DNA from: a virus | Lineage: Duplodnaviria > Heunggongvirae > Uroviricota > Caudoviricetes | Virus record (IMG/VR): IMGVR_UViG_3300045996_002451 | Coordinates: 19,172-83,171 of that record | Direction: 5' to 3' (one strand) | DNA length: 64,000 nt | Made by a program: the position numbers and the translations under genes | The notes under the pieces: model-generated | What the model was told of the DNA's origin: nothing | Databases searched by the model: none | Seen by the model: only the letters and a program-made list of their open reading frames with translations | Shown: piece by piece, positions 3,340 to 50,980 of the stretch | How the letters are laid out: each line of letters begins with the position of its first letter | Numbering within the stretch: the stretch's first letter is position 1

Positions 3340-5280
3340 TTACTCGTCGTTGGCCACGCCGACGTAATCGTAGTAGAACGTGCTGATACTACGCACGGCC
3401 TCCCGATCTTCCGGCGATTCTGGAAACTGGAGCTGGATCATGTTGCGCCCGTGCTGATCCACGGCAACCCCGCGCGCAGCTTTGCTTTGGCGGCTTTCCG
3501 TTTCCACGGCCCGCATCACCCCAATGACGCCGGTAATACAGGAACCGATCTGTACCGGCAGCGTCCCCTTTTCCAACTCAAACCCCATGTCCAGGAGTTC
3601 CTGGGAGATCTGCGGAGGAAGGGCTTTGCCGGTGGCGTCGGTGTACGTCAACGCGTTGCAGAAGAGCGGCAGTTTACCGGTCTCCGGATCTTCGATTTGC
3701 CAATGTTCGAAGCCGCGCTTGCGCAAACCACAGGAGATGATGTGCACGAGCGTTGCCATGTCCCACTTGGGGTGGATCTTCTTCAGGCCCGCCGCCCATG
3801 CCAGCGCGGAAAGGTACGCATCGCGTGCGCCCTTACCCAACCCGGTCTTTTCCGAGACGACCAGGTCCACTTCGACGCGTTCTCCGTTCGGAAGATAGGT
3901 CCACAACTGACGCACGGGCCGGGTCACGGCTTTGATGCCGCCTGCGGCCAGTTTGATTTTGTCGTAGCCCATCTTTACCGGTACATCGTACCAGTAGCGG
4001 TACCGGATGCGGTAGATCGGCGTGGTGTCATCCAGCATCTCCGTCAACTCATAAATGGGTTGATGCTTGAAGCCGGGTAACAGCGCCAGTTCTTCGCGCC
4101 GTTCGTCCCATTCCTCCTGGGTAAGCTGCTCGCTCTTGGTGTGGTAGGCCACGAGCTTACGGCGTCCGGAAGGGGTGACTAGGAGGGCGTCTCCCGAAAC
4201 GATCTCGCCGTCAGCCAGATCTTCTGCAGCTACGCCCATACTTTCCAGCTCGGCGCGTTCAGTCGGGTCCGGCTCGAAGACGTTTTGTCCCTGGATGTTG
4301 ATGAACGCAACTACCAGGCCTTTCAGGCGACTACTCAAGATCGGCGGACGCGGATGTCCGATACTCTGGAGCAGGGGATGTCCGTCCTCTTGGGTGACGT
4401 ACGGAAAGCACGTCGGCCAGGCTCGCCCTTCACGGTGATCGCGCAGGGGGTTGGCATGACACCCAAACGGGTTGCGCGCCAGGACCTCATCCGGAACCGG
4501 CTGTTGGGTGACGAAGCTGAGCGGGTTACCGGGACGTACCCGCATGACATGCCGTCCCACGTCACTCTTACCGGTGTGCAGGACACACACGAACGGGTCC
4601 AGGTACTCGATGAACTTCAGCTTGATCGTCTCTGCCAGCAAGGTGTCTCCGGGTACCGCAGGGTACCCGAGTTCCACTTCGTGCATCTGGAAACAGAGGA
4701 GCGCGTCGTCGGTCAAAGGCATGCCGGAAAGATCGGGTCCGCCGTTGACTAGCTGGGAGATGGCCCGCTGCAGGTAGGAACGGCACAGCTTGGTGTCCGG
4801 TCTCCGAGTGCTGGAGACCAGTCCTTTCGCTTTGCCTTCCTGACGATCCTTCGGAGAACCGAAGAACGCCTCTACCAGGGCATCGAACAGCCGTCCGTAG
4901 AAGTTGTCCCACCGCCAGCCCCATTGTGCCAGCGGCGTCTGCCCAACTCGACTGCGCGTTGTGGGCAGGGCTTCGAGCGCCAACTGATCGGCTAACGTGG
5001 ACCGGAGCCGCGGATGGCAGAAGCGGAGGGCGCCTTTGGGCTGCTCCTGTTGCGGCCCCACAAACTGGATCAGGTGACCGTGGATCCCCGCGTCCCAGGC
5101 GTAGGGGATCGCTTTGACGGTAGGCAGATGCAGCGTCACATCCACGTAGTCCACAAAGCTGGACCAGAAGGTGTGCACCCGTACCAAGGCACGCTCCGTG
5201 TCGGTCCAGGAGAGCAGTTCCAGAATGGGAGCGCCGTCCGAGCCGCGCATGTTCAACGCTTCTTGGTAAGAACTGATCAC
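3340..5280 (-). CDS. divergent two-barrel RNA polymerase, beta-like (lysine barrel) subunit
   Basis: MGYDKIKLAAGGIKAVTRPVRQLWTYLPNGERVEVDLVVS resembles beta GDKxxGRHGNKGV...MPYLPDGTPVDIVLN; colinear similarity to the C-terminal half of 43943-47533. Confidence 0.7.
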   Translation of the reverse strand: MISSYQEALNMRGSDGAPILELLSWTDTERALVRVHTFWSSFVDYVDVTLHLPTVKAIPYAWDAGIHGHLIQFVGPQQEQPKGALRFCHPRLRSTLADQLALEALPTTRSRVGQTPLAQWGWRWDNFYGRLFDALVEAFFGSPKDRQEGKAKGLVSSTRRPDTKLCRSYLQRAISQLVNGGPDLSGMPLTDDALLCFQMHEVELGYPAVPGDTLLAETIKLKFIEYLDPFVCVLHTGKSDVGRHVMRVRPGNPLSFVTQQPVPDEVLARNPFGCHANPLRDHREGRAWPTCFPYVTQEDGHPLLQSIGHPRPPILSSRLKGLVVAFINIQGQNVFEPDPTERAELESMGVAAEDLADGEIVSGDALLVTPSGRRKLVAYHTKSEQLTQEEWDERREELALLPGFKHQPIYELTEMLDDTTPIYRIRYRYWYDVPVKMGYDKIKLAAGGIKAVTRPVRQLWTYLPNGERVEVDLVVSEKTGLGKGARDAYLSALAWAAGLKKIHPKWDMATLVHIISCGLRKRGFEHWQIEDPETGKLPLFCNALTYTDATGKALPPQISQELLDMGFELEKGTLPVQIGSCITGVIGVMRAVETESRQSKAARGVAVDQHGRNMIQLQFPESPEDREAVRSISTFYYDYVGVANDE

Positions 5281-5534
5281 AGGAAAACTCCTACTTTGGT
5301 CAGGTCCGCCACGCCGCGGATCTTCCGAAACTGCGAAAGCAGTTGCTCGCAGATGGTGTGCGCGCGGGGAGGCACATCGCCGATCGAGAACTCGCGCGTC
5401 CCCCAGACGTAGCTGTAGCTGGACTCGTCGGTGGGATCTTCCGCCTGAAGCATCAGCGGTAGTCCCGCTAACCCGCCAGGATACTGAAGGTACCAGATGC
5501 CGTACTGATCACGGGTTAACAGAAGCTTTTTCAT
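5277..5534 (-). CDS. hypothetical protein
   Basis: 85-aa ORF overlapping the start of the beta-like gene. Confidence 0.6.
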   Translation of the reverse strand: MKKLLLTRDQYGIWYLQYPGGLAGLPLMLQAEDPTDESSYSYVWGTREFSIGDVPPRAHTICEQLLSQFRKIRGVADLTKVGVFL

Positions 5535-5537
5535 GGC

Positions 5538-5795
5538 TTACTCCGGAAGAATGTCGAGGCGCGACCAGGTAATGAACTTGCCGCCGTGCTCAGATCTATG
5601 TGGTTCGAACTTCTTGTATCCTCCTCCAGGGAGGACTTCATACCACAGACTATCAATCAGCTCGGCCACGCGCGTCTCGCCGATAAAGATGACGTCTAAC
5701 TGGATGGAGATCGGTCCGTCGAGACCAGGCGTGTACGCATGGGGACGACTCCAGTCATGTGTGTCTTGTTGGGGGTTAGAAAAACGAATCTTCAT
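5538..5795 (-). CDS. hypothetical protein
   Basis: Likely start MKIRF; tightly packed. Confidence 0.55.
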   Translation of the reverse strand: MKIRFSNPQQDTHDWSRPHAYTPGLDGPISIQLDVIFIGETRVAELIDSLWYEVLPGGGYKKFEPHRSEHGGKFITWSRLDILPE

Positions 5796-5796
5796 G

Positions 5797-6153
5797 CTAG
5801 CTTTTCCCCCGCGCCGTACTAGACGGCTTGTTGTAGGCCAGCACTTCCTCGTCAAATTGGCGTGGTGTCAGTTGCAAGGTATGCAGCACGTCGCGAATGG
5901 CTTGCCCAATCTCGGAAAGATGTTGCGCCTCTCGGGCAAAAGCCACCTGCAGCATCGGACACGCCTTTTTGCGCAGTTCGGGAGAGTTCGCGCAGCGCTG
6001 CAACGCCTCAGTAAGGCTGGACACAGTTTCGTTTTTAGGCAACTCCAGCCACGAGATACCGCCGCGCCAGTGCGCCATCGCGCGTACGAGGACGGTGTTT
6101 TCAGCAGGGGTAAGTTGCGTACCGACTGGGACTGTGTGAGGATCAAGAGACAT
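5797..6153 (-). CDS. hypothetical protein
   Basis: Likely start MSLDP after GGAG. Confidence 0.55.
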   Translation of the reverse strand: MSLDPHTVPVGTQLTPAENTVLVRAMAHWRGGISWLELPKNETVSSLTEALQRCANSPELRKKACPMLQVAFAREAQHLSEIGQAIRDVLHTLQLTPRQFDEEVLAYNKPSSTARGKS

Positions 6154-6209
6154 GTTCGTTCTCCGGTACACGGGTAACGGTGGGGTAGCTCTTACCCCAC
6201 CGTTAACAC

Positions 6210-7871
6210 CTAGTATTGATACAGCTCGCTGAAGTCCGCGATATCCGCCAGGTCGTCCGACTGAGAGACGGGCCACTGGGTAACCGCGGCGCCGGTGAGG
6301 TCGGCGAGCATGGCGTCATAGACCCGTTCGGGTGGGATCTCTAACTGCATCATGGCGTCGAGCATCGCCAGGACACTCTTCTCCATGCTCTTGCGCTTCA
6401 GCACGAGAGCCCAATAGACCGGACTCTTGGCACAGAAGCTGCGGAGATTGCCTTCCGCGAGCCGCCAGGCAGTTTTCAGCACTTCCAGACTGTCCGGAGG
6501 GATCCCGATCTGTTCTAACCCTTCCCAGTCCAATTCACCGCCCTGGAGCAGGGTTTCCATGTGCGCGTACGGATCCCAGGTATGGTTGCTGGCAAACTGG
6601 GAGTTGCCTGCCCCTTTGCGCGCATCCATGCAGTTCTCCATGTACCACTCCAGCAGTCCGTACGAGAGTTCGTAGGCCCGCTTCATGGGTAGCCCGCCTT
6701 CCAGGCCCAGTACGCGACTGCACCACCAGCCAATGGCCATGGTGTAGACTGCGACGTGCTGCCGCGTGTCGGCGTTGTGGATCGCCTCTTTGCGCAGGTG
6801 GGTGGAGGAAAGGGCCGGAGGCATGAACTTATCCTGAACGGTCTTCTCTTTGACTCCGGCAGCAATGAGCTTTTCCGGATGGAGGAGACTGCCGAGGGAC
6901 ATCACGCTGTGGGTCTCGGTCCAGGTGTCGTACTCTTGGAGTGGCTCGAGCTTCAGCACTTCCAGCTCGCCGCTGAGGACTTCCTTGACGCGGAGGAACG
7001 CGAACGCACAATCGCCGTCCTCATCGCCTAGCCACAGCTTTTCCAGGTTCCAGGGGTTGGCCCAGATGACCTTGCCGTTACCGGGAACTATCCGTAGTGT
7101 CATAGCCTGGATACCGGAGGCGTTGGCCAAAGGAAAGCGGATGCACCAGCACGGCATCCCGTCGAGCAGTTCCCAGACTAGCTGGAGGTAGCGGTGTTTT
7201 TCAGTTTCACTGAGGGCACCCAGGCCCTGAGCAAATAACTGCGCCGCATCCGGGTAGGCTGCAAACAGCTCCGGATGTTCTTTGTAGACCCCTTTCAGGA
7301 TCTGCTTGGCAAACCCTTCCGTCACAGCGATCTGCCGCGGAGGAAGATTTTTGCGCGTCTGCACGTGCGCCATGAAACCGGGACGCTCCCGGACCTTGAT
7401 CATCCCACCCTTGAGCACGGACGCCAGTAACCGCCCCGAAGCCTCGACCATTTTGGCGATCTCGTAGCGGTAGTTGTAGTCCTCGTTCTGGGTGAGGTAA
7501 TTGGACAGGAGGTTGTTGGCCCGGACAAAGAGGTCCGGTACCCGAATCTGGATACCGAGGGGACGACCCTTCTCATCCCAGACCCGTTCTTCCATCAGTT
7601 CACTGCGACGCAGGGGCGGCAACTTTACCAGGTGATACGGCTCCGGTAAGAGCGTGGGTATCTGTACTTCCGTTTCAAAGTACGCCCCGGCAAGCACCGT
7701 GCGGTGCAGGTCCGTGAGTTGGAGCACGCGCCGATCCGAGGTGGAGCGGACGCTTTTTGGGTCACGTACGATGCACAGATGCTGCGACCCGCCGACCCAT
7801 GGGTAAGGTACGGAGGCCGTGATTAAGGACGTAGCGGAAGACGAAACAGGAGACGTATCTACGGTAGACAT
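6210..7871 (-). CDS. divergent two-barrel RNA polymerase, beta'-like catalytic subunit
   Basis: CIRFPLANASGIQAMTLRIVPGNGKVIWANPWNLEKLWLGDEDGD aligns by eye with beta' [41 protein letters not shown]; DEDGD at 7011-7025. Confidence 0.8.
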   Translation of the reverse strand: MSTVDTSPVSSSATSLITASVPYPWVGGSQHLCIVRDPKSVRSTSDRRVLQLTDLHRTVLAGAYFETEVQIPTLLPEPYHLVKLPPLRRSELMEERVWDEKGRPLGIQIRVPDLFVRANNLLSNYLTQNEDYNYRYEIAKMVEASGRLLASVLKGGMIKVRERPGFMAHVQTRKNLPPRQIAVTEGFAKQILKGVYKEHPELFAAYPDAAQLFAQGLGALSETEKHRYLQLVWELLDGMPCWCIRFPLANASGIQAMTLRIVPGNGKVIWANPWNLEKLWLGDEDGDCAFAFLRVKEVLSGELEVLKLEPLQEYDTWTETHSVMSLGSLLHPEKLIAAGVKEKTVQDKFMPPALSSTHLRKEAIHNADTRQHVAVYTMAIGWWCSRVLGLEGGLPMKRAYELSYGLLEWYMENCMDARKGAGNSQFASNHTWDPYAHMETLLQGGELDWEGLEQIGIPPDSLEVLKTAWRLAEGNLRSFCAKSPVYWALVLKRKSMEKSVLAMLDAMMQLEIPPERVYDAMLADLTGAAVTQWPVSQSDDLADIADFSELYQY

Positions 7872-7978: not shown

Positions 7979-8776
7979 TTAGGAGAGGTTGTCTTGCCAC
8001 GGGTTGTACGGTTCATCGGAACCGGCACCTGCGGGGGCCAGCTCACGCGGAGGCGGCGCATCCTGGTAGCTGCTGCTGGTCGGAGCGGAGACGCCCGGCT
8101 GCACGTTGCGGAAACGCTCACGTCGCTCTTCCGGAGTCTCGCGGTTCTTGCGGGCCGACTCGTACGGGAACTTTTCGGCGACCATGACCGCCGTCATCAC
8201 GCCTTCCATGTTCTGGAGGTTCTCCAGAGTGGCCAACCGATTCTTACGGGTAGCCGGACCGTTGGCCGTGGTGCGCACGAACGAGGTGTACAAGCGGCTG
8301 GCGAACTCCAGCTTGTACGTCTTGCCGTCGAAACCGAGGTCCACGGCCAGCACGAGCGCCTGGGAGTTCTCGCCGACCGTCTGCGGGATCACGAGCGCGT
8401 AGCTCCAGAACGTGCTGGAGCCGCTTTCCGTCGCGGTACCGAAGCGCTCGACGGCCACGAGGTACGCGGTCTGATCGGCGTTTTCGTCCAGCTCGATCTT
8501 GTACGCTTCGCGGTTCTGCGGCTTGACTTCCAGGTAGCCCTTGATGGAATCGACCAGGGCGCCCAGCTTCTCGAACGCGACCGCGGTCAGGTTGGCGATG
8601 TGGATGCGCGGAAAGCGGATGACCATCGGCGCGTTGTTGCCTTCGAACACGGCGCGCAGCTTGTTGGCGGAGATCGGATCCACGTTGTCGATCTCAACCG
8701 CCGCGGTGATGACCTGATCCAGGATGTCGGTGCGAGCGTCGCGCGGAGCCACACCATCTCGAGTAACGATATACAT
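7979..8776 (-). CDS. hypothetical protein with a flexible acidic/aromatic C-terminal tail
   Basis: 265 aa, strongly G/C-ending codons, ends SDEPYNPWQDNLS. Confidence 0.7.
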   Translation of the reverse strand: MYIVTRDGVAPRDARTDILDQVITAAVEIDNVDPISANKLRAVFEGNNAPMVIRFPRIHIANLTAVAFEKLGALVDSIKGYLEVKPQNREAYKIELDENADQTAYLVAVERFGTATESGSSTFWSYALVIPQTVGENSQALVLAVDLGFDGKTYKLEFASRLYTSFVRTTANGPATRKNRLATLENLQNMEGVMTAVMVAEKFPYESARKNRETPEERRERFRNVQPGVSAPTSSSYQDAPPPRELAPAGAGSDEPYNPWQDNLS

Positions 8777-9053
8777 TGGAAGCTCTCTTTCTGAACAGTG
8801 ACGAGGCTCTCTAGGAGCCGGGTTGTTACACGGGTATCAACAGTGGAAGGAGGGAACCCGTAACCCCAAACCTTCCCCAACCCTACACGCAATCTAGCGG
8901 TCCGCACCCTCTGAAAAGAGAACGGACCGCTTAACTTTCCTACCTGCACCTACTGTTCCAGCGAGGCTGTACGCGAACGCGCCTGCTTGTGCGGCCCACT
9001 TACCGCGGCCTTCTGGAAAAGGGATAGCCAGTATGAAGTTGTGAATGGCTTGG

Positions 9054-12920: not shown

Positions 12921-14504
12921 TTAGGCAACGGGCAGTTCTTCGAGGCGATGACCATACTGCGCGTGTAGCCAGCGAAGTCCCGTCTCAGTATCACTGAAGT
13001 CACCGTTGAGCTGCGCTTCGTAGGCTGCCGCCACCGCTTCTCCGATGTGGGGACCGCCCTTGTACTCGAAGTAAGGCATCACGTGCCGTCCGAGTACCAG
13101 TTTGGCGGGCGGCTCGTAGTAGACGTTCAGCTTTTCGGCTAGCTCCAGCATGAAGAACGCGGCTACCGGCATCCCGGTTGGCAGCGGCGGTCGACCGCTG
13201 GCGTCTGCTTCCATCAGCCACGCAAGCATCTGGATGTTGGCCGGAGCCAGGCGCTTGGCCAGACGACGCACCACTGTCTCTGGTCGATCGCTGTTCAGGA
13301 TGTCCCGGTGGGCCAGGTGATCCTCAACCAATGGTACTACCTGCGCGGTGATCTGCGGATGCATCTTGGTGATCCCGATCCGGTCCAGGAACCGCTGGGC
13401 GATGGGACCGCCTGCGCGTTCATGCCCGTGACTGGTCCAGCGCAGCTTGCCCTTTTTCTCCAGTTGCGCGGTGACTACCGGCTTGGCGAAGTCGTGACAG
13501 AGGGCGGAAAACACGAGTACCGCCCTGGCTTCGGGTTCCAACTTTTCGCGGATAGCGATGTTGTTGGCCGCATCCACGACGTACCGGGTGTGCCGGTAGA
13601 CATCCCCTTCGGGATGCCACTCCGGGTCTTGTGGGCACCCATACATCCGGCGCAGTTCTGGGTAGAAAACGTCCCAGAGCGTGCTGGACAAGAACTCCAG
13701 TCCGAGGGAAGGACGGGTGCTCTTGGTGGCCCACTTCAGCCATTCTTCCGCTACTCGTTCCCGAGAGACACAGCGCCCTTTGTCGGTGAGTCGACTGAGG
13801 GCGAGGTAGTCGCCGGTGGCACGGTAGAAGTTGCGCCCGTGCCAGGTCTTTAACTCCGGGTATGCTCCCAGTTCCGGATCCGGCGCATCCTCGCGATACC
13901 GCTGGCGGATCTGGATGCCCAGGTTGTTGAGCAGATCCTCGGTCTGCACCTCGACGTCCCAACCAAAGCGGGAAACGAACTGCATCCCGCGTAGGGCCCG
14001 TAGTGGATCGTCCGCGAAGAGGTTCATGTCTACTGCACGCAGCAGGCCTTGCTGGATGTCTTCGACCCCGTCAAAGAAGTCGAGTAGCTCTCCGGTGAGA
14101 GGATCAAACAGGAGCGCGTTACACGTGTAATCGCGCCGCCGACAGGCTTCGCTAGGAAGCATCTGAGGATCGTACTCGACTACATAGTCGTGGCGGGTCG
14201 GATCGTTGCCCTGCCTGCTGTCTTTACGCGGTAGGCTGACGTCGTAGGTGGCGCCGTCCACGCGCCACTTGAGGACACCAAAGCTGGAACCTTCCAGTTG
14301 GACGGAGCCGGGCTGCTGTTCCAGAAGGTCCTGAAGAGCTGGAAAAGGGAGGCCGTAGACCTCGACGTCGATGTCCTTGGGTTCGAGTCCTAGGAGGGCG
14401 TCGCGGACACAGCCTCCGACCAGGTAGCCCTGAAGGCCTCTAGCCTTCAGGTCCAGTAGGAACTTCCGGAGTTGGGACGTCACCGGGATCTTTAGGGTCT
14501 GCAT
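12921..14504 (-). CDS. cca: CCA-adding tRNA nucleotidyltransferase with HD domain
   Basis: LVGGCVRDALLG..PKDIDVEV, RRDYTCNA, DDPLRALRGMQF, SRERVAEE, HPEGDVYRHT, LCHDFAK. Confidence 0.93.
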   Translation of the reverse strand: MQTLKIPVTSQLRKFLLDLKARGLQGYLVGGCVRDALLGLEPKDIDVEVYGLPFPALQDLLEQQPGSVQLEGSSFGVLKWRVDGATYDVSLPRKDSRQGNDPTRHDYVVEYDPQMLPSEACRRRDYTCNALLFDPLTGELLDFFDGVEDIQQGLLRAVDMNLFADDPLRALRGMQFVSRFGWDVEVQTEDLLNNLGIQIRQRYREDAPDPELGAYPELKTWHGRNFYRATGDYLALSRLTDKGRCVSRERVAEEWLKWATKSTRPSLGLEFLSSTLWDVFYPELRRMYGCPQDPEWHPEGDVYRHTRYVVDAANNIAIREKLEPEARAVLVFSALCHDFAKPVVTAQLEKKGKLRWTSHGHERAGGPIAQRFLDRIGITKMHPQITAQVVPLVEDHLAHRDILNSDRPETVVRRLAKRLAPANIQMLAWLMEADASGRPPLPTGMPVAAFFMLELAEKLNVYYEPPAKLVLGRHVMPYFEYKGGPHIGEAVAAAYEAQLNGDFSDTETGLRWLHAQYGHRLEELPVA

Positions 14505-15906: not shown

Positions 15907-17631
15907 CTAGATATTGCCCAGCGCAAATTGCCCCATGATGTTCGGTGTGGAGGCATCAAAACCCACACAATCGATCATTCCCCGATCTTTGGGATCGGCG
16001 ATGGTGAACCCGTTCGAGACCATACCGCACACGATCAGCTTGGCGTCGATGCCCATCTTCTCCCGGTACGCGCGCAGGGCCTGGACGGGCTGTACCGGTC
16101 CAGCGTACGTCTCGGAGTCCGTGTAGACCACGAAGACATCGAACGGGATCTTCTTTGCCAGCGCGTAACGCATCGGCAAGGAGCAGTCGGTGGAGCCGAA
16201 GGCAAGGTTGTTGACTTCGTTGCATGCATCGGTCAGCCGCTGGCGCGGACTGACTTTCAGCTCACTGATCCCATCGATCTCGTCCGCTGTTGCGCGGTTA
16301 CGCGCGTAGTAACCCCGGCTGCCTGCGGTGAAGCCCGTGATCATGTACTGGTCTTCGACGTTTGCCGTGACCAAGGCCATCGCCACGGAGCCCACGCGCG
16401 GGGAGAGCCCCTGCACGCCGCCGCACATTCCACCCGTCATCGAGCCCGAGACGTCCAGGGCCAGCATCCACCGCTTGCCGGTCGGCTCCACGTTCTTGAA
16501 CGCCAGGTAGAACGCCTTGTCCAGTCCGTCCACGATCTGACGCACAGGAGACCAGACGTTGTCCCCTTTCAGGGATCTGCCGGACTCGTACGTCTTCATC
16601 GCAGTGAGCACGGCGATCGGATGGATCCGCGAAGCCGCCAGTCCTGCCGGATCGGTCAGCTTGTTCACCACGAACTTGGTGGCGTCGGACATCGGTCCCA
16701 GGACTCCGTAGCGGGTCATGTTCGCCAGGTTGCGCAGCATCGCCGTAAGACCCATCTCCGGCAGCAAGGCCTCCCAGACAGCCGGGCTGGTCTTGTACTG
16801 CGTCGGGATGCACTCGTGCGGCAGCCGGAACTCCTTGAGGACCGTGATCACGTCCTTTTCGGTCGGTACCCGCTTGATCAGCTCGAAGCCCCGGATCATA
16901 TCCGGCAGGTGCTGCGAAAGATCTTCGTACATCACCGCACCGGTGGACAGCTCGCTGCCGCACTTGACGCCCTTCTTGCGCGAGACCGTACGCGTACCGA
17001 GATCGCCGCCCACGGACCAACGCATCGCCGCGTCCTTGCTCTTGCTCTCCGTGATCGGATGCGCGAGGCGCAAGACGTCGCGATGGCTCCAGCCGTCCCG
17101 CTGCTGATACTTGATCAACTGCAGGGCGAGGGAGTTGTCCGAGCGCTCCGTGTACCAGTTGGCCACGGCACGTCGCAGTCCTCGACCCCAGCCGCGCATG
17201 CCATCGACGTGCTCGCAGAACTGGAACAGGTGGGTGCCGATGCGACATACCTTGGGTAGTGCCGAGAGGGCAGCCGCCCGGGTCGGGTCGTCGCCATAGC
17301 TGGCCGCGATCGCCAGGACGAAGATCGCCTGGTCGTTCTTGGGTGCTCGCGCCTGATCCGAGACTTCCGTCACGATCTGTACGGTCCGGAGACCATCCGC
17401 CTTGACGCACTCCTGTGCCGCCTTCGCGTTCTCCAGGGTCAGCTTCTGCTGCGTGGCGTAGTAGGAACCGCCTTCACTTCCCAGGATGAGGAAGCGCTGG
17501 AGGCGGGTCCAGCAATCCACGCCAAAGACGACGCCTCCGGCACTGTTGGGGACCATGTCGGCTTCTCGGCCCGGGATCGCCCGCGTCTGCGGCGTCTTCT
17601 TGCTGCTCAATGTACCCTTCAGATAACTCAT
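15907..17631 (-). CDS. rsr: Ro60/TROVE RNA-binding protein (Rsr)
   Basis: NSAGG, RLQRFLILGSEGGSYY, GWGRGLRRAVANWY, KYQQRDGWSHRDVLRLAHP, vWA MIDAS LALDVSGSM, YTDSET, GFDAS. Confidence 0.96.
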   Translation of the reverse strand: MSYLKGTLSSKKTPQTRAIPGREADMVPNSAGGVVFGVDCWTRLQRFLILGSEGGSYYATQQKLTLENAKAAQECVKADGLRTVQIVTEVSDQARAPKNDQAIFVLAIAASYGDDPTRAAALSALPKVCRIGTHLFQFCEHVDGMRGWGRGLRRAVANWYTERSDNSLALQLIKYQQRDGWSHRDVLRLAHPITESKSKDAAMRWSVGGDLGTRTVSRKKGVKCGSELSTGAVMYEDLSQHLPDMIRGFELIKRVPTEKDVITVLKEFRLPHECIPTQYKTSPAVWEALLPEMGLTAMLRNLANMTRYGVLGPMSDATKFVVNKLTDPAGLAASRIHPIAVLTAMKTYESGRSLKGDNVWSPVRQIVDGLDKAFYLAFKNVEPTGKRWMLALDVSGSMTGGMCGGVQGLSPRVGSVAMALVTANVEDQYMITGFTAGSRGYYARNRATADEIDGISELKVSPRQRLTDACNEVNNLAFGSTDCSLPMRYALAKKIPFDVFVVYTDSETYAGPVQPVQALRAYREKMGIDAKLIVCGMVSNGFTIADPKDRGMIDCVGFDASTPNIMGQFALGNI

Positions 17632-19144: not shown

Positions 19145-19263
19145 TTTGAAGAGGACAAGGGAGTTAACCTCGACTGAAACGGCCACCAAGGCAGCGCCCG
19201 ACTCGAACGGGCTTCGTCTTGTTTTGTAAGCAAGATAACCGAAGTCATCCGGCCCTCTTCAAA
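19145..19263 (-). ncRNA. Y RNA-like with an internal T arm
   Basis: TTTGAAGAGGGCCGGATG...GGTTATC...GCCCG-TTCGAGT-CGGGC...CTTGTCCTCTTCAAA. Confidence 0.75.
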
Positions 19264-43942: not shown

Positions 43943-46900
43943 TTAGTCCAGCGCTTTGAGCTGCGTCATCACCGCTGCGAGTCCCATTCCGATCTCTTCC
44001 AGTTCGGCAGAGACCTCGGAGAACTCACGGCTGCTGACGTCCGGCCAGATCCCTGCGAACAGGGCTGCGTGCAGCTCTACCTTGACCTGAGCGTCGACGT
44101 TGCTCGTGATCTCCACCGTCTGGCTCGGACGGTAGCACGGCATCGGAACCACCACTGCTCGTCCCAGTTCGTGGCGATCCACGTCCGGGTTGAGGCAGCG
44201 TCCGATGTTGCGCGTATCGCCCGGGGTGTAGATCCCCTCTTCGTAGAGGTTGGCCCAGGTTACGTCGCGTACGCAGTCCTGATCCAAGCCCTTGGCGACG
44301 AGCTTGGCGCGGATGTGCGTGACGTACTGTTCAGCGGTAGCCGTGGTGTCCTTGATGGACTTGATGCCCGCTTCAGCAGCCATCCCACTACCTACCGCAC
44401 CCAGGGCTTCCTTTCCAGCCTTGACCGCCGTATCCTTAGGGAACACGACGTCGACCGGTTGCTGGTTGCCCTTCTCATCCGTGTACCAGAACTGGATCGG
44501 GATGATGTTCAGCGTCCCTTTGAAGGGGCTGAGGAACTTCACCTTACCAGCGTCCAGTCGCGGCCAGGTGACCGTGACTCGGTACTTGGGCACCATCAGA
44601 CCCGGATGCTTCTCGATTGGGCGCTCTTCGATGACGAACACCCCCGGGAAGTCCACCGGTACTCCGTGGTGGATCAAGGTCTCGCGGTAGCTTTCCACAC
44701 GCTCCATCGTGGCCAGGTCCTCATGGGTTTGGATGAGGGCTAGCTTCAGCAGCGCGCTCGGGCAAGCCGCGATCGTATCCAGACACGCGCCATTGTAGAT
44801 GGTCACGTTCTCGATGTTGGCCACCATGGTGTTGACGACGGTCTCGTGGTTAGCCAGAGACTGGGCTCGACCGGCGCCAGTTACGTGGAGCGGGCTCGAG
44901 GTCGGTTCCACCAGGTGCTCTACCCACGCCACGTTCTTGCGGACGTGGAGGGGCAGTTGTGCCAGCAGAGCGGACAGGTTCTCGCGATTGATCTCGCAAT
45001 CGAGAGGTACGTTGCCCTTGACCGCACGCCAGATGCTCTCGAAGCACTTGGACAGTGTGGCCAGCTCTACTGCGTCCGAGTAGTCGTACTCTGCCCAACG
45101 CTTGGGAGAAGCAGCGTCGAGCGTGATTAACGGATGGTACTCCTTTACGTACTTGGGCTGACCGGTCGCATCCACGAAGGCGAACTGCTGACCAGGCTTG
45201 CTCTTGTTGGTGTAGCCCACACCCACACCGATGCACTCCAACTTGGAGGCCCAGCGTAGGCACTGGCTCAGGCGGCTCAGGCGCACGTCAAGCGGCACCT
45301 TACGGCCTGCGTAGTCTTCCGGGTCCACGATCACCCCACGGTTGAGGTGTACGTGGGTGTAGCCAGGGGTAGCTACCGGGAGCTTGACCAACTCCTGGAT
45401 GATCTCGTAGTTCAGCTTGTCGCTGATCTCTTGGTCCGGAGTCTGACCGTGCTGCAGGCTCTCCACAGTCGAGACCGTGGTGAGAGCGGTGCAAACGATC
45501 TCCTGGTACCATTCCTGGAAGCTCATCCAGCGAGGACCACCGGAGAAGCGTGGGTTGCTACCTTTCTTGTTGTCAGTGCACTTCGGATCCCAGACGATGC
45601 GGGGATGCCAGAAGAACTTGCGATTACCGACCGTGAGCACCACGTGACGGCGCTCCTGGTCCTGAGAGAACGGACCCACGAACTCTACCTTCGGCAGGTC
45701 CAGTCGTACTTTGCGTACCTGCGCGTAGGTGCCCCAGACCTGGTGGAGCTTGGCCGAGAAGACCACCCGGGGATCCTCTGCGGTGCCCACGTTGCTGATC
45801 GTGACCTCGGAGAAGACTGGGAACTCCTGGTACGTCCCATCTTCCATCTTCTTGGAGAAGACGATTCCGGTGTACCGACCCACGAGCATCTCAGCCTTTG
45901 CCCAGTCGTACTGTTCTCGCCAGGCTTTCGGCCCAGCGATGCGGAACGACTTCGGCAGATCACGGAAGGGCTTGAGGTCATCCTCGTACTCCTTCGGCTC
46001 TTCCTCTTCCAACTCTTCGAGCCAGAACGGTTTGATCCCGTAGCAGTCGAAGAGCAGGTCCTGGCAGAAGTTCTCAGGCTGACCACCGACCGCGGTGTAA
46101 CGATTCCAGATGGCCATAAACCGGGTAGCTTGCGCATCCGGGCTACGACCAGCGGAGATCATCATCCCAGCCAGCGTCTTCTGCATCGGCTTCAGGGAGA
46201 GCATCCCATCCTTATCCGAGCACGCCTGCATGATGGCTTCGAGCAAGCGCAACGGTTCAGGCTTCAGGAACTGGGAGAAGGTCTTGACGAACTTCCCTGC
46301 AGGCAAGCCACCTTTCAGTAGCTCACCAATAGCGCAGCTCATCGACATCAGGGCCAACAGACCGCAACCGGCCTTCTTCCCTGCATCCATCTCCTCTTCC
46401 AGAACTTCCTGGAAGCACACGCCCACCGTCTCTTGTGCAGCACGCAGGAGTCGGTAAGCCTGTGCATCGAAGTCCGGGAACGTCTCGGTTAGCTCATTCG
46501 GGAGCGGGTTGGTCATCGCAGCGTGCGCCGCAGCCGGGAGTGCAAATCCCGGGGTCACGCCACCCTGTTCCCACCACTGAATCGCGAGCATCCGAGCCAG
46601 GCAGTAGTTCAGCGAGTAGGTGCTGATCCCTACCAGGTACTTCGCCATCATCCCTTCGACACTGTTGAGGGTGTCGTCGAGCAGCTTGGTACCAGAGCGC
46701 TGAGCCGTCCACATCCCCACGAGCTTGTCGATGAAGGGTGAACCATCCAGCAGCACGGGAGCCGGGAACTTACCTGCTACTGAGACCTTGAGGATCTTCG
46801 GAGCACGGCCACCTACTGGCACGGCAAAGAAGACCACACCACCATCCCCGTCCTCATCCCCTAGGGCCTTGTCGGACAGGTCCACGTGGTTGAGGTAGAT

Positions 46901-47533
46901 TTTACCAGCCTCGCGATCATTGAGGATCACGATGGACTTGGGCAGACAACCGCCACGACCACCCACCGGGTAGCGCATGCGGTAGACTTCGACGAACGTG
47001 CCGTCTTCCAGCGTGTCGATCATCTTCGCGTACTGCTTGCGAAGGCGCTTCGGCAGCGTGAGGAAGTCCGCCTCGTTCAGACCCACCTGATGGGCCTTGA
47101 CCCGAGGATCAGTCTGGAGCTGCCCGTAGATGCCAATGACCTTGAAGCGTCGAAGCCAGGCTGCCCAGCGCTTAGCCGCGAGCTTGCACATCGCGAGAGC
47201 CACTTCCGTCAGCAGCCGCTTCTTGTTGTAGGTCTTGCGGGCTTCGGCGAACTGCAGCTTGGTGATCGCGCTCTCCAGCTCGATGACCGTGACGGGTGTT
47301 CCGTTGTACGTAGCCTGCATCGTCTTGTACATCCCAGCCGGAATGTAGAAGGTGCAGTTGTGCATCTCCTTGAAGCCACCACCAGAGACCGCCATCGCGA
47401 GGACGGACTCGGGCTCTTGCTCCAGCTTGCTCAGTAGCTCATCCTCGGTGTGCTCACCTGGGAAGACCCAAGCGTTGCCACCCAGGCAGAAGCGTGTTAA
47501 GGTTTCAGTGTTCATAGTGTAGGACCAACTCAT
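43943..47533 (-). CDS. single-chain two-barrel RNA polymerase candidate (beta'-like barrel first, beta-like barrel second)
   Basis: RMRYPV...GKIYLN...LGDEDGD at aa ~226 (46844-46858); AGKVKFLSPFKGTLNIIP...TDEKGNQQPVDVVFP at aa ~1000. Confidence 0.75.
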   Translation of the reverse strand: MSWSYTMNTETLTRFCLGGNAWVFPGEHTEDELLSKLEQEPESVLAMAVSGGGFKEMHNCTFYIPAGMYKTMQATYNGTPVTVIELESAITKLQFAEARKTYNKKRLLTEVALAMCKLAAKRWAAWLRRFKVIGIYGQLQTDPRVKAHQVGLNEADFLTLPKRLRKQYAKMIDTLEDGTFVEVYRMRYPVGGRGGCLPKSIVILNDREAGKIYLNHVDLSDKALGDEDGDGGVVFFAVPVGGRAPKILKVSVAGKFPAPVLLDGSPFIDKLVGMWTAQRSGTKLLDDTLNSVEGMMAKYLVGISTYSLNYCLARMLAIQWWEQGGVTPGFALPAAAHAAMTNPLPNELTETFPDFDAQAYRLLRAAQETVGVCFQEVLEEEMDAGKKAGCGLLALMSMSCAIGELLKGGLPAGKFVKTFSQFLKPEPLRLLEAIMQACSDKDGMLSLKPMQKTLAGMMISAGRSPDAQATRFMAIWNRYTAVGGQPENFCQDLLFDCYGIKPFWLEELEEEEPKEYEDDLKPFRDLPKSFRIAGPKAWREQYDWAKAEMLVGRYTGIVFSKKMEDGTYQEFPVFSEVTISNVGTAEDPRVVFSAKLHQVWGTYAQVRKVRLDLPKVEFVGPFSQDQERRHVVLTVGNRKFFWHPRIVWDPKCTDNKKGSNPRFSGGPRWMSFQEWYQEIVCTALTTVSTVESLQHGQTPDQEISDKLNYEIIQELVKLPVATPGYTHVHLNRGVIVDPEDYAGRKVPLDVRLSRLSQCLRWASKLECIGVGVGYTNKSKPGQQFAFVDATGQPKYVKEYHPLITLDAASPKRWAEYDYSDAVELATLSKCFESIWRAVKGNVPLDCEINRENLSALLAQLPLHVRKNVAWVEHLVEPTSSPLHVTGAGRAQSLANHETVVNTMVANIENVTIYNGACLDTIAACPSALLKLALIQTHEDLATMERVESYRETLIHHGVPVDFPGVFVIEERPIEKHPGLMVPKYRVTVTWPRLDAGKVKFLSPFKGTLNIIPIQFWYTDEKGNQQPVDVVFPKDTAVKAGKEALGAVGSGMAAEAGIKSIKDTTATAEQYVTHIRAKLVAKGLDQDCVRDVTWANLYEEGIYTPGDTRNIGRCLNPDVDRHELGRAVVVPMPCYRPSQTVEITSNVDAQVKVELHAALFAGIWPDVSSREFSEVSAELEEIGMGLAAVMTQLKALD

Positions 47534-49021: not shown

Positions 49022-49399
49022 TGCTATCTCCTATACGTGTGTGGGTGTATACCAGGATGTACCTGGTAAAGCTTAGGGCTAGAGTTGCACTAGCCTGTAG
49101 GTATAGGTATCTATATCTACTAACTATCTAAGCTTGCAGGGTACTTGGGTAATCGTTACGGGATAGATCTTTAGCCCTATCCTGATTACTTAATGCTGCT
49201 ATGTGCACATCAATGCGTCTTCCATTGAATGTAGCTATCCACCTTAGCACTACGTGTCACTAAGATAGGTATCTACTTGGCTATTGCCTCGCTATCTCGA
49301 CCTGCGTATCCCTCAATCAATTGAGTGTGATTCCGCTTAGCTAATGCTAATTACCAGGTCTACTTCATCGCGTGGAAGAAGATCGCTCGTGTTGTGTGT

Positions 49400-49626
49400 G
49401 AGAGAAGGGGGTGGGCTAAAACAAACCCTAGCCCCCTTCACCTATTACATGTAGTGCTCATGAAATGGATCATTTTTTGGAAGGTCCCTTTAGGCCCGGT
49501 ACTCCGTTCAGGTAGCACGTCCGGACCGGTGGAAAGTGTGGGTGGAGAGAGGGGGTGGGCTCAGAAAAAAGAGAGCCCCTCTTGATTGATTCATGTAGTG
49601 CTCATGAACCGGATCAAGTTTTGGAA
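49400..49626. repeat. two imperfect ~80-bp direct repeats, period 144 bp
   Basis: GGGGGTGGGCT at 49407 and 49551; CATGTAGTGCTCATGAA at 49448 and 49592. Confidence 0.8.
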
Positions 49627-49969
49627 CTCTCTTTAGGGCCCGGGAGATCGTTGGGGAAGGAATAGTGGGAGGGGTAGGTTGCTTAGGTAAATAGCCACTG
49701 AGTATGACGGGTCATACAAAAATCTTGTTTAGCAGACGTACTGTGGCGGTAAACAGGAATAGGTCAGGTGAAGTGGGTCTCAAGAAGACCCACCCACATC
49801 CTTGGTGTCACGAAGGCCGTCCTTCTCCAGCTCGCTTCCTTTGTGATACGCTTTCTCTTAGCGCGCATATAATACTGGAAAGAGAAAGAGGGTGCGCGGT
49901 TACCCGTGTATCAATAATGTCCCAAAAGGGACTGCGTGAAGTGTTCTTGTATGTTTCAGGAGTTGTTAG

Positions 49970-50980
49970 ATGTCTAAGAAGACGAGTTCCACGATTGACG
50001 TTCAGGATCCCACCAATACCATCCTGGCTCGGTTAGAAGACGGGGCGGATCGTTTGGACCAGGTCATCGCGCCGATCGAAGTCGATCGACTGCTGCCCGA
50101 TCCTTGTCAGCCGCGCAAGTCTTTTAATCGGATCGACGAGTTGGCGAAGAGCATGAGTGAGCACGGACTCCAGGAAGCCCTGGTGATTCGTCCGGCACAG
50201 GGAGCCGCCAACCGTGGGAAATACTGGGTTGTCTCCGGAGAACGGCGCCTAAGAGCCGCCAAGGAGTTGGGGTGGGATAAGGTAGACTGCCGGATCAAGA
50301 CGCTGGACCCCACCAAGTCGGCGATCCTGGCATTAGCCCTGAACATCCACCGAGAAGATCTCTCCGAGATCGAGAAGGGCGAAAGCTGCAAGCGCATCAA
50401 GACCATGATCGATGGCACGTGGGATGAGGTGGCGGCACTGGTCGGCATCAGTCCGATCTACGCGCGCCAGCTCGGCAGCTTGCTGAACGTCACGGATAGT
50501 GTGAAGGAACGGGTACGCAATGGTACTCTACCGACCCGCACGGCGATCGCCTTGAAGGCTCTCCCGGACAAGGACCAGGAAGAGTGGGCGAAGAAGGCGG
50601 TGGAAGAGCACCTGACGGCAGAGCAGGTCCGGACCCAGACGCAGCATCTGGCCCGACCCCGGATGACCCGTCACGTCCCGGATCTCCAGGTACCGACCCG
50701 CATCGAGCAGACCCCGGTCGAGGCGCCGGTCAATACCGGACGCGCCGGTACCAAGACTAAGCTACTAGAAGACAGTGGAGTGGCCCTTACAAACATCCGC
50801 AAACTGATCGAGCGCCAGAGCTGGTCACCTTCCGAGGTGACACCCCGCCAACAGGAACTCCTCAAGGACCTGTACCGCGAGGTCGCAGCCCTCCATCAGG
50901 AGATCTCGGACATCTATCTACCGTTCCGCCCGGACGCTAAAGCCGAAGCAAAGAAGTTGGCCACGGCCCTTCCCTTCTAA
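49970..50980 (+). CDS. parB: ParB/Spo0J-family CTPase DNA-binding protein
   Basis: PDPCQPRKSF, ELAKSM..HGLQEALVIR, VSGERRLRA, NIHREDLS.IE, HTH WDEVAALVGIS. Confidence 0.92.
   Translation: MSKKTSSTIDVQDPTNTILARLEDGADRLDQVIAPIEVDRLLPDPCQPRKSFNRIDELAKSMSEHGLQEALVIRPAQGAANRGKYWVVSGERRLRAAKELGWDKVDCRIKTLDPTKSAILALALNIHREDLSEIEKGESCKRIKTMIDGTWDEVAALVGISPIYARQLGSLLNVTDSVKERVRNGTLPTRTAIALKALPDKDQEEWAKKAVEEHLTAEQVRTQTQHLARPRMTRHVPDLQVPTRIEQTPVEAPVNTGRAGTKTKLLEDSGVALTNIRKLIERQSWSPSEVTPRQQELLKDLYREVAALHQEISDIYLPFRPDAKAEAKKLATALPF

Follow-up and report, generated by a model that had tools for sequence, protein, structure and literature searches.

A fused and a two-chain paralogue of one compact family of predicted two-barrel RNA polymerases in an uncultured jumbo phage

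A single phage genome encodes two paralogues of one compact family of predicted two-barrel RNA polymerases (RNAPs), one made of two separate chains and the other fused into a single polypeptide. The genes lie in a stretch of 64,000 nucleotides (hereafter the window, positions 19,172 to 83,171 of IMG/VR record IMGVR_UViG_3300045996_002451, a virus of the Caudoviricetes). The two-chain enzyme, which we call S, consists of A (553 amino acids (aa), 6210..7871) and B (646 aa, 3340..5280), and the fused paralogue F (1196 aa, 43943..47533) carries a beta'-like region followed by a beta-like region; all three genes are on the minus strand. An earlier note, made from the letters of the window, had proposed the coexistence of fused and two-chain members of one polymerase family in this genome, and profiles, structure models, a model of the complex and two further genomes now bear this out. 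The three open reading frames (ORFs) lie where the note had placed them, and every motif that it quoted is present. Judged by their sequences and models, A is a compressed beta'-like chain and B a compressed beta-like chain of a two-barrel RNAP.

Pairwise BLAST searches of A and B against F gave marginal values (E 3e-4 and 3e-3), insufficient by themselves to prove homology, which is established by family profiles. The A-family profile detects F at E=3.5e-8 and the B-family profile at E=2.2e-11. In the profile-profile alignment that the earlier note had suggested as a check, the A family matches the N-terminal half of the fused family over 413 columns (E=6.1e-31) and the B family its C-terminal half over 481 columns (E=8.1e-49). 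The two matches are colinear, and the domain order of F is thus that of the genes A and B, as had been claimed. In a control search of all ORFs of the genome with a hidden Markov model (HMM) of the fused family, A and B were recovered at E 4e-25 and 9e-23, and the next match stood at E 0.88. Identity between F and A+B inside the same genome is 25-33%. Eight residues are invariant in two-barrel polymerases, namely R-x-P and DxDxD in barrel A, and one D and two K in barrel B (PMC2919709). All eight are invariant in both the S and the F family.

Chain A comprises a clamp region, a catalytic barrel, and bridge-helix-like and trigger-helix-like segments. The barrel contributes R245, P247 and D283/D285/D287, the aspartates within the motif LGDEDGD. 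A bridge-helix-like helix at residues 357-390 precedes the trigger-helix-like segment with E412, M415, D416 and K419 (M-D-x-x-K), and these key residues are invariant in 23/23 alignment rows that cover them. We take E412, M415 and K419 to be in register with Q929, M932 and H936 of the E. coli beta' trigger helix, a pairing that the range of the structural alignment supports only broadly. Searched against the PDB, the A profile matches Pol IV NRPD1 (E 1.8e-4) and bacterial beta' (E 6.5e-4), and at E < 0.01 the solved structures that it matches are Rpb1 or beta' only. The AlphaFold2 model of A has a predicted local distance difference test (pLDDT) score of 86.8. Its best fold matches are all beta'/Rpb1 (Z 11.4, 265 residues aligned, root-mean-square deviation (rmsd) 4.8). 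Other matches fall modestly below the Z of 9-11.4 that is reached by beta'/Rpb1, with gp96 at 8.2, gp62 at 6.9, and QDE-1 and RDR2 at 6.0. Residues 160-297 match double-psi beta-barrel domains as well as beta'/Rpb1, so that the fold of barrel A is present in the model, and the closest Atlas cluster is a viral RNAP family (template modelling score 0.56). Since the model follows beta'/Rpb1 lengthwise as one chain, starting in the N-terminal region, passing the barrel and reaching residue 1252 of the beta' of M. tuberculosis, A is, on this model, a whole compressed beta' and not a fragment.

Chain B contains N-terminal lobes and the second barrel with D364, K441 and K450, each invariant in 7/7 rows. 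Its GTG start codon is backed by alignment with the N-terminus of an orthologue. The fold of B was transferred from the C-terminal half of F, of which B is the equivalent. In the model of F (pLDDT 65.8), residues 553-1148 match beta/Rpb2 at Z 14-17 (best 17.1, 429 aligned, rmsd 5.2), N-terminal lobes included, and cover Rpb2 57-1050; unrelated rows of the same comparison reach Z 6. Because this half of F resembles beta/Rpb2 and the B profile aligns with it, B is a compressed beta. The catalytic residues of F are R187, P189, D226/228/230, D919, K997 and K1005; the order of F is beta'-first, as its barrel with the aspartates comes early (226) and the one with the lysines late (919-1005). The two lysines are spaced by 9 residues in S and by 8 in the F of the window.

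A complex was modelled from A45-530 and B130-640, as the earlier note had also suggested. It scored 0.80, the best of 3 controls 0.19, and it passes a mark that 58 of 80 solved complexes, and 2 of 110 mismatched pairs, also attain. Contacts agree by at least 88% between runs, and the partners have a pLDDT of at least 77. The predicted interface includes A282-286 and B361-365, 441 and 450-452, that is, catalytic residues of both chains, and the two barrels are thus predicted to meet in one active site. The pass may owe something to the likeness of the pair to solved beta/beta' pairs, and the model supports binding rather than showing it. S is very probably an active heterodimeric RNAP.

The arrangement is shared by relatives. 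A and B adjoin in that order in 6/6 related loci. F occurs together with A+B on a 250-kb contig from JGI (also assembled at 236 kb), where they are 13 kb apart, and on one related contig contained in an Armatimonadota genome bin, where the distance is 4.7 kb; the latter may be a mis-binned phage. In unrooted trees of both halves, F and S form separate clades across genomes (support by the Shimodaira-Hasegawa-like approximate likelihood ratio test 99/95 and 97/100), and we therefore regard their split as almost certainly an old duplication in which both copies were retained. F evolves faster; between the same genomes its identity is 27-30%, that of S 36-46%. The wider family has 72 members, mostly a stand-alone beta'-like chain with a beta-like gene next to it. 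It also holds two additional, distant beta'-beta fusions (P0080 and P0064), as well as beta-then-beta' fusions of a sister subfamily (P0058 and P0084) that are 30% identical to a stand-alone beta gene. Both chain orders hence occur inside one family.

These relatives also change how the two forms are to be read. The earlier note had called A and B a split paralogue. The two-chain form is real, but its break is the normal boundary between beta' and beta, and it is the fusion that is unusual. Because of this canonical boundary, and because two-chain forms dominate the wider family, the two-chain state is probably ancestral and F derived, although the trees are unrooted. The near-equal lengths on which the note had remarked (1199 versus 1196 aa) are correct but coincidental, as relatives have 1104 versus 1012 and 1146 versus 1057 aa. 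We rejected the equality as a sign of recent fission, given these differing lengths and a same-genome identity of just 25-33%.

The family is difficult to find. Scans of A, B, F and U (the gene upstream of A, described below) against Pfam, PHROG and NCBIfam gave no matches, and neither A nor B matched PF00562. A word-based homologue search with F found nothing, and fused relatives were recovered solely through the A-family profile. Pattern scans of viral and metagenome contigs yielded no family members, and tblastn against cultured phage records gave no match. The beta-like gene of one distant relative (L029:12814-14799) had been overlooked by the gene caller. In another relative, a DnaJ-domain gene has downstream of it an incomplete second version of the B C-terminus, which spans about 170 aa and includes the lysine motif (L008:12668-13189; G001:C69), and in one relative a gene with a match to the C-terminal domain of RNA polymerase alpha directly follows B (L007:6821-7405).

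Directly upstream of A on the minus strand lies U (265 aa, 7979..8776). A homologue of U stands immediately upstream of A in 5/5 related loci for which upstream DNA was present; no such gene was recognised ahead of the distant fusions P0080 and P0064. U has no family, sequence or fold match. It is a candidate for a third subunit or a promoter-specificity factor. The three small ORFs that the earlier note had seen between the halves are real frames on the minus strand, of 118 (5797..6153), 85 (5538..5795) and 85 aa (5277..5534), and the stop codon of the last overlaps the GTG start of B. None of the three has a homologue in any related locus fetched, where the space between A and B is empty or holds either a single small ORF of unrelated sequence or an AAA ATPase gene. 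As they lack homologues and are missing from relatives, we rejected them as unlikely polymerase subunits; by sequence comparison, they are lineage-specific. In two distant phages, it is an AAA ATPase gene that separates the beta'-like gene from the beta-like one (L006:11670-13430 and L029:9476-11104). RNA-handling genes lie near the U-A-B operon, encoding a CCA/poly(A) polymerase-HD protein (window 12921-14504), Ro60 (15907-17631) and RNase H (1277-2206), and an RNase H gene is found downstream of B in several relatives.

The source record of 211,171 bp has a completeness rating of 98% and belongs to an uncultured tailed jumbo phage. Its plus arm holds the terminase, capsid and lytic tail genes, and A, B and F are all in the minus arm, amid mostly small non-structural genes. 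Two sigma-70-type genes (genome 83047-83763 and 193816-194460; L020 and L025) flank the plus arm. Three very large proteins of the structural arm (genome 120610-126858, 132444-138311 and 141606-148673), with PD-(D/E)XK nuclease-like, exonuclease-like and transglycosylase domains, are probably ejected virion proteins. The genome also encodes a ParB protein (window 49970-50980), and a 14-bp parS-like near-palindrome is tiled over it at no fewer than 31 sites (e.g. 793, 8825, 22914 and 35339), which suggests a partitioned episome. One copy lies between U and the candidate promoter described below, and another at 6165, between A and the small ORFs. A second palindrome with the core TATGACGCGTCATA, a candidate operator, occurs at window 51048 and 61791 and about five more sites, mostly in the plus arm and often beside a parS-like site.

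About 100 bp upstream of U-A-B lies one copy of an intergenic motif with the core TGCGTGTAGGGGTG (8878..8891, minus strand). There are eight copies, all on the minus strand (8878, 9508, 23811, 29785, 36872, 38884, 40121 and 40791), against a chance expectation of 0.52 +/- 0.67. They sit in gene gaps on the coding strand from 8.9 to 40.8 kb, each is followed by a hairpin, and relative to F all eight are downstream and none upstream. A genome-wide scan with a position weight matrix left a gap in score from 23 to 14 bits, with no site elsewhere above background, and leave-one-out recovery succeeded. De novo motif discovery in the arm also ranked it first (7 forward, 0 reverse). We consider it a candidate phage promoter. 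F itself lies near the head of the leftward arm, as do its counterparts in L017 and L027, and in three genomes it comes a few small genes past the strand switch. This is the place that would be expected of the enzyme made first. Two tandem repeated elements of about 120 bp at the head of this arm (window 49380-49700), with a similar tandem pair at L017:7780-7960, are possible first promoters.

We propose that the two enzymes act in a relay. F, the ancient paralogue, would be expressed first, from its place at the head of the arm and probably by the host polymerase, and would read the one-strand motif and thereby transcribe the middle genes, including U-A-B. A and B would then assemble into S, a heterodimeric DNA-dependent RNAP of about 1200 residues that could be viewed as the cellular beta'+beta core minus most insertions, with one two-metal active site at the interface, to which A would supply its three aspartates and B its aspartate and two lysines. 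S would in turn transcribe a later class of genes, probably with U as its specificity factor. The scheme starts from homology, catalytic conservation, fold, co-occurrence and a motif, all established computationally. To these it adds activity, promoter function, order and a role for U, which we infer, and we give the whole of it a probability of roughly 0.57. The successive stages of transcription for which the earlier note had argued are plausible and indirectly supported by gene position and the strand-specific motif, and the order in which F precedes S seems somewhat favoured over other orders.

Several points weigh against the relay. The full motif is not kept in relatives, where just a TAGGGG core is found upstream of U in 4/5 loci. 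The motif could be read by S itself, or it may act as an RNA element, since a hairpin follows each copy. A de novo search found no convincing second, late promoter motif, and the DNA upstream of F showed no sigma-70 consensus promoter. Finally, the two phage sigma-70-type proteins could drive the late genes together with the host polymerase.

Alternatively, as in phiKZ and P23-45, the virion might contain F and inject it for transcription of the first genes, and the motif would be read by S as the non-virion enzyme. Known phages with two RNAPs follow this plan (PMC10770324, PMC7824862), a single chain would presumably suit ejection, and the faster divergence of F also fits. Searches of the structural arm with family HMMs and for DxDGD revealed no third, virion-type polymerase, though a very divergent one could escape them. 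However, F lacks any fusion to a tape-measure protein, its neighbours at the head of the arm are small non-structural genes, it is on the strand opposite to the terminase, capsid and tail genes, and its location resembles that of the non-virion gp64 of P23-45. The earlier note had found the two enzymes reminiscent of, though far smaller than, the two RNAPs of phiKZ-like phages. As a jumbo phage with two paralogous RNAPs our phage does resemble phiKZ, but, unlike in phiKZ or P23-45, neither polymerase gene is among the virion genes, and the two are therefore not obviously a virion/non-virion pair. We think a packaged F unlikely.

It is less likely again that the enzymes are divided by lifestyle, with one serving a plasmid-like prophage state and the other lytic growth. 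The ParB gene and the genome-wide parS-like palindromes would fit such a state. Yet both polymerase genes share one arm and one orientation, a repressor switch was not identified, and the lifestyle itself is putative.

A role in replication, with one paralogue acting as a primase or a PolD-like DNA polymerase, is doubtful, a little more so than a division by lifestyle. No match to PolA, PolB or PolC (DNA polymerases of families A, B and C) or to the DnaG primase was found in this 98%-complete genome, which does encode a DnaB-like helicase and SSB. A 1955-aa protein was rejected as a DNA polymerase, as it has only an exonuclease-like domain and lacks polymerase motifs. PolD shows that a two-barrel core is capable of DNA synthesis (PMC7708050). 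On the other hand, both enzymes retain a clamp region, bridge and trigger helices and beta lobes, their best folds are all RNAPs, and many tailed phages encode no DNA polymerase and rely on that of their host (PMC11348598). PolD was not among the listed fold matches of the A and F models; its DP1 partner was not searched for. Slightly more improbable still is a division of labour within the duplicated pair, transcription on one side and primers or DNA on the other, which would amount to an extant transitional form between RNA polymerase and PolD. The unrelated small ORFs inserted between A and B might hint that S is a leftover of the fused gene, redundant or in decay. This reading is very improbable and already largely refuted by conservation, since the catalytic residues are invariant, S is better conserved than F, several genomes retain A+B, and two-chain forms dominate the 72 matches of the wider family.

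Two two-barrel RNAPs in one phage are already known from phiKZ and P23-45, and many viruses carry two such enzymes (PMC10770324). The family and its layout appear undescribed; a literature search found nothing on a two-chain family of 550+600 residues, on a beta'-first single chain, or on their pairing, although two key reviews were beyond its reach. P23-45 has two single-chain RNAPs from an ancient duplication, of which gp64 is non-virion and gp96 is a virion protein fused to the tape measure (PMC10770324). The likeness lies in two minimal two-barrel RNAPs per phage, an ancient duplication, the placing of one of the two genes where the early region starts, and the proposal that each enzyme reads its own promoter motif. 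Unlike here, where one enzyme has two chains and the other is beta'-first, each enzyme of P23-45 has a single chain in which the beta-like barrel comes first. There is no counterpart here to the tape-measure fusion of gp96, as neither enzyme is fused to a virion protein, and the fold of A seems modestly nearer to cellular subunits (Z 11.4 for beta' versus 8.2 for gp96 and 6.9 for gp62).

With phiKZ and AR9, which have multi-chain virion and non-virion RNAPs (PMC7824862), our phage shares a jumbo genome and two paralogous cellular-type RNAPs without alpha or omega (PMC7824862, PMC2919709), and subunits of these phages are among the fold matches here (Z 9-14). A phage-specific extra subunit may confer promoter specificity there, and U is a possible analogue. 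In those phages beta' and beta are each cut into at least two polypeptides, giving 4-5 chains, whereas our phage encodes each as one 550-650-aa chain and has a second enzyme made of a single polypeptide. The 210-250-kb phage clade looks dependent on host transcription yet carries two predicted enzymes of its own, from a family invisible to Pfam, PHROG and NCBIfam, and it also offers a candidate promoter and a candidate specificity subunit.

Cellular beta+beta' and the mReC phage RNAPs resemble S in having two chains that are divided at the same boundary and, by model, present their elements in the same order (PMC7481178). In contrast, A+B has about half the length and lacks NADFDGD, Pfam, NCBIfam and PHROG models miss it, and the trigger segment of A has M-D-x-x-K in place of the cellular sequence. 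The mReC enzymes are defined by subunits of at least 800 aa with NADxDGD that standard HMMs find (PMC7481178); our chains have 553 and 646 aa and LGDEDGD, and no standard HMM matches them. If active, A+B would be among the smallest cellular-type beta+beta' polymerases, at about 1100-1200 residues without alpha or omega, and a tractable model of what the core minimally needs for transcription.

Like YonO, QDE-1, crAss gp66, pGKL2 Orf6 and NCgl1702, our enzymes are minimal and fast-evolving and carry the eight catalytic residues, and F is also one chain. Those enzymes run beta-then-beta' (PMC2919709, PMC10770324), F beta'-then-beta. Unlike them, F belongs to a family that also contains two-chain and beta-then-beta' members. 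With separate chains, beta'-beta fusions of apparently more than one origin and beta-beta' fusions all in one family, the history of fusion and fission in two-barrel polymerases becomes directly testable.

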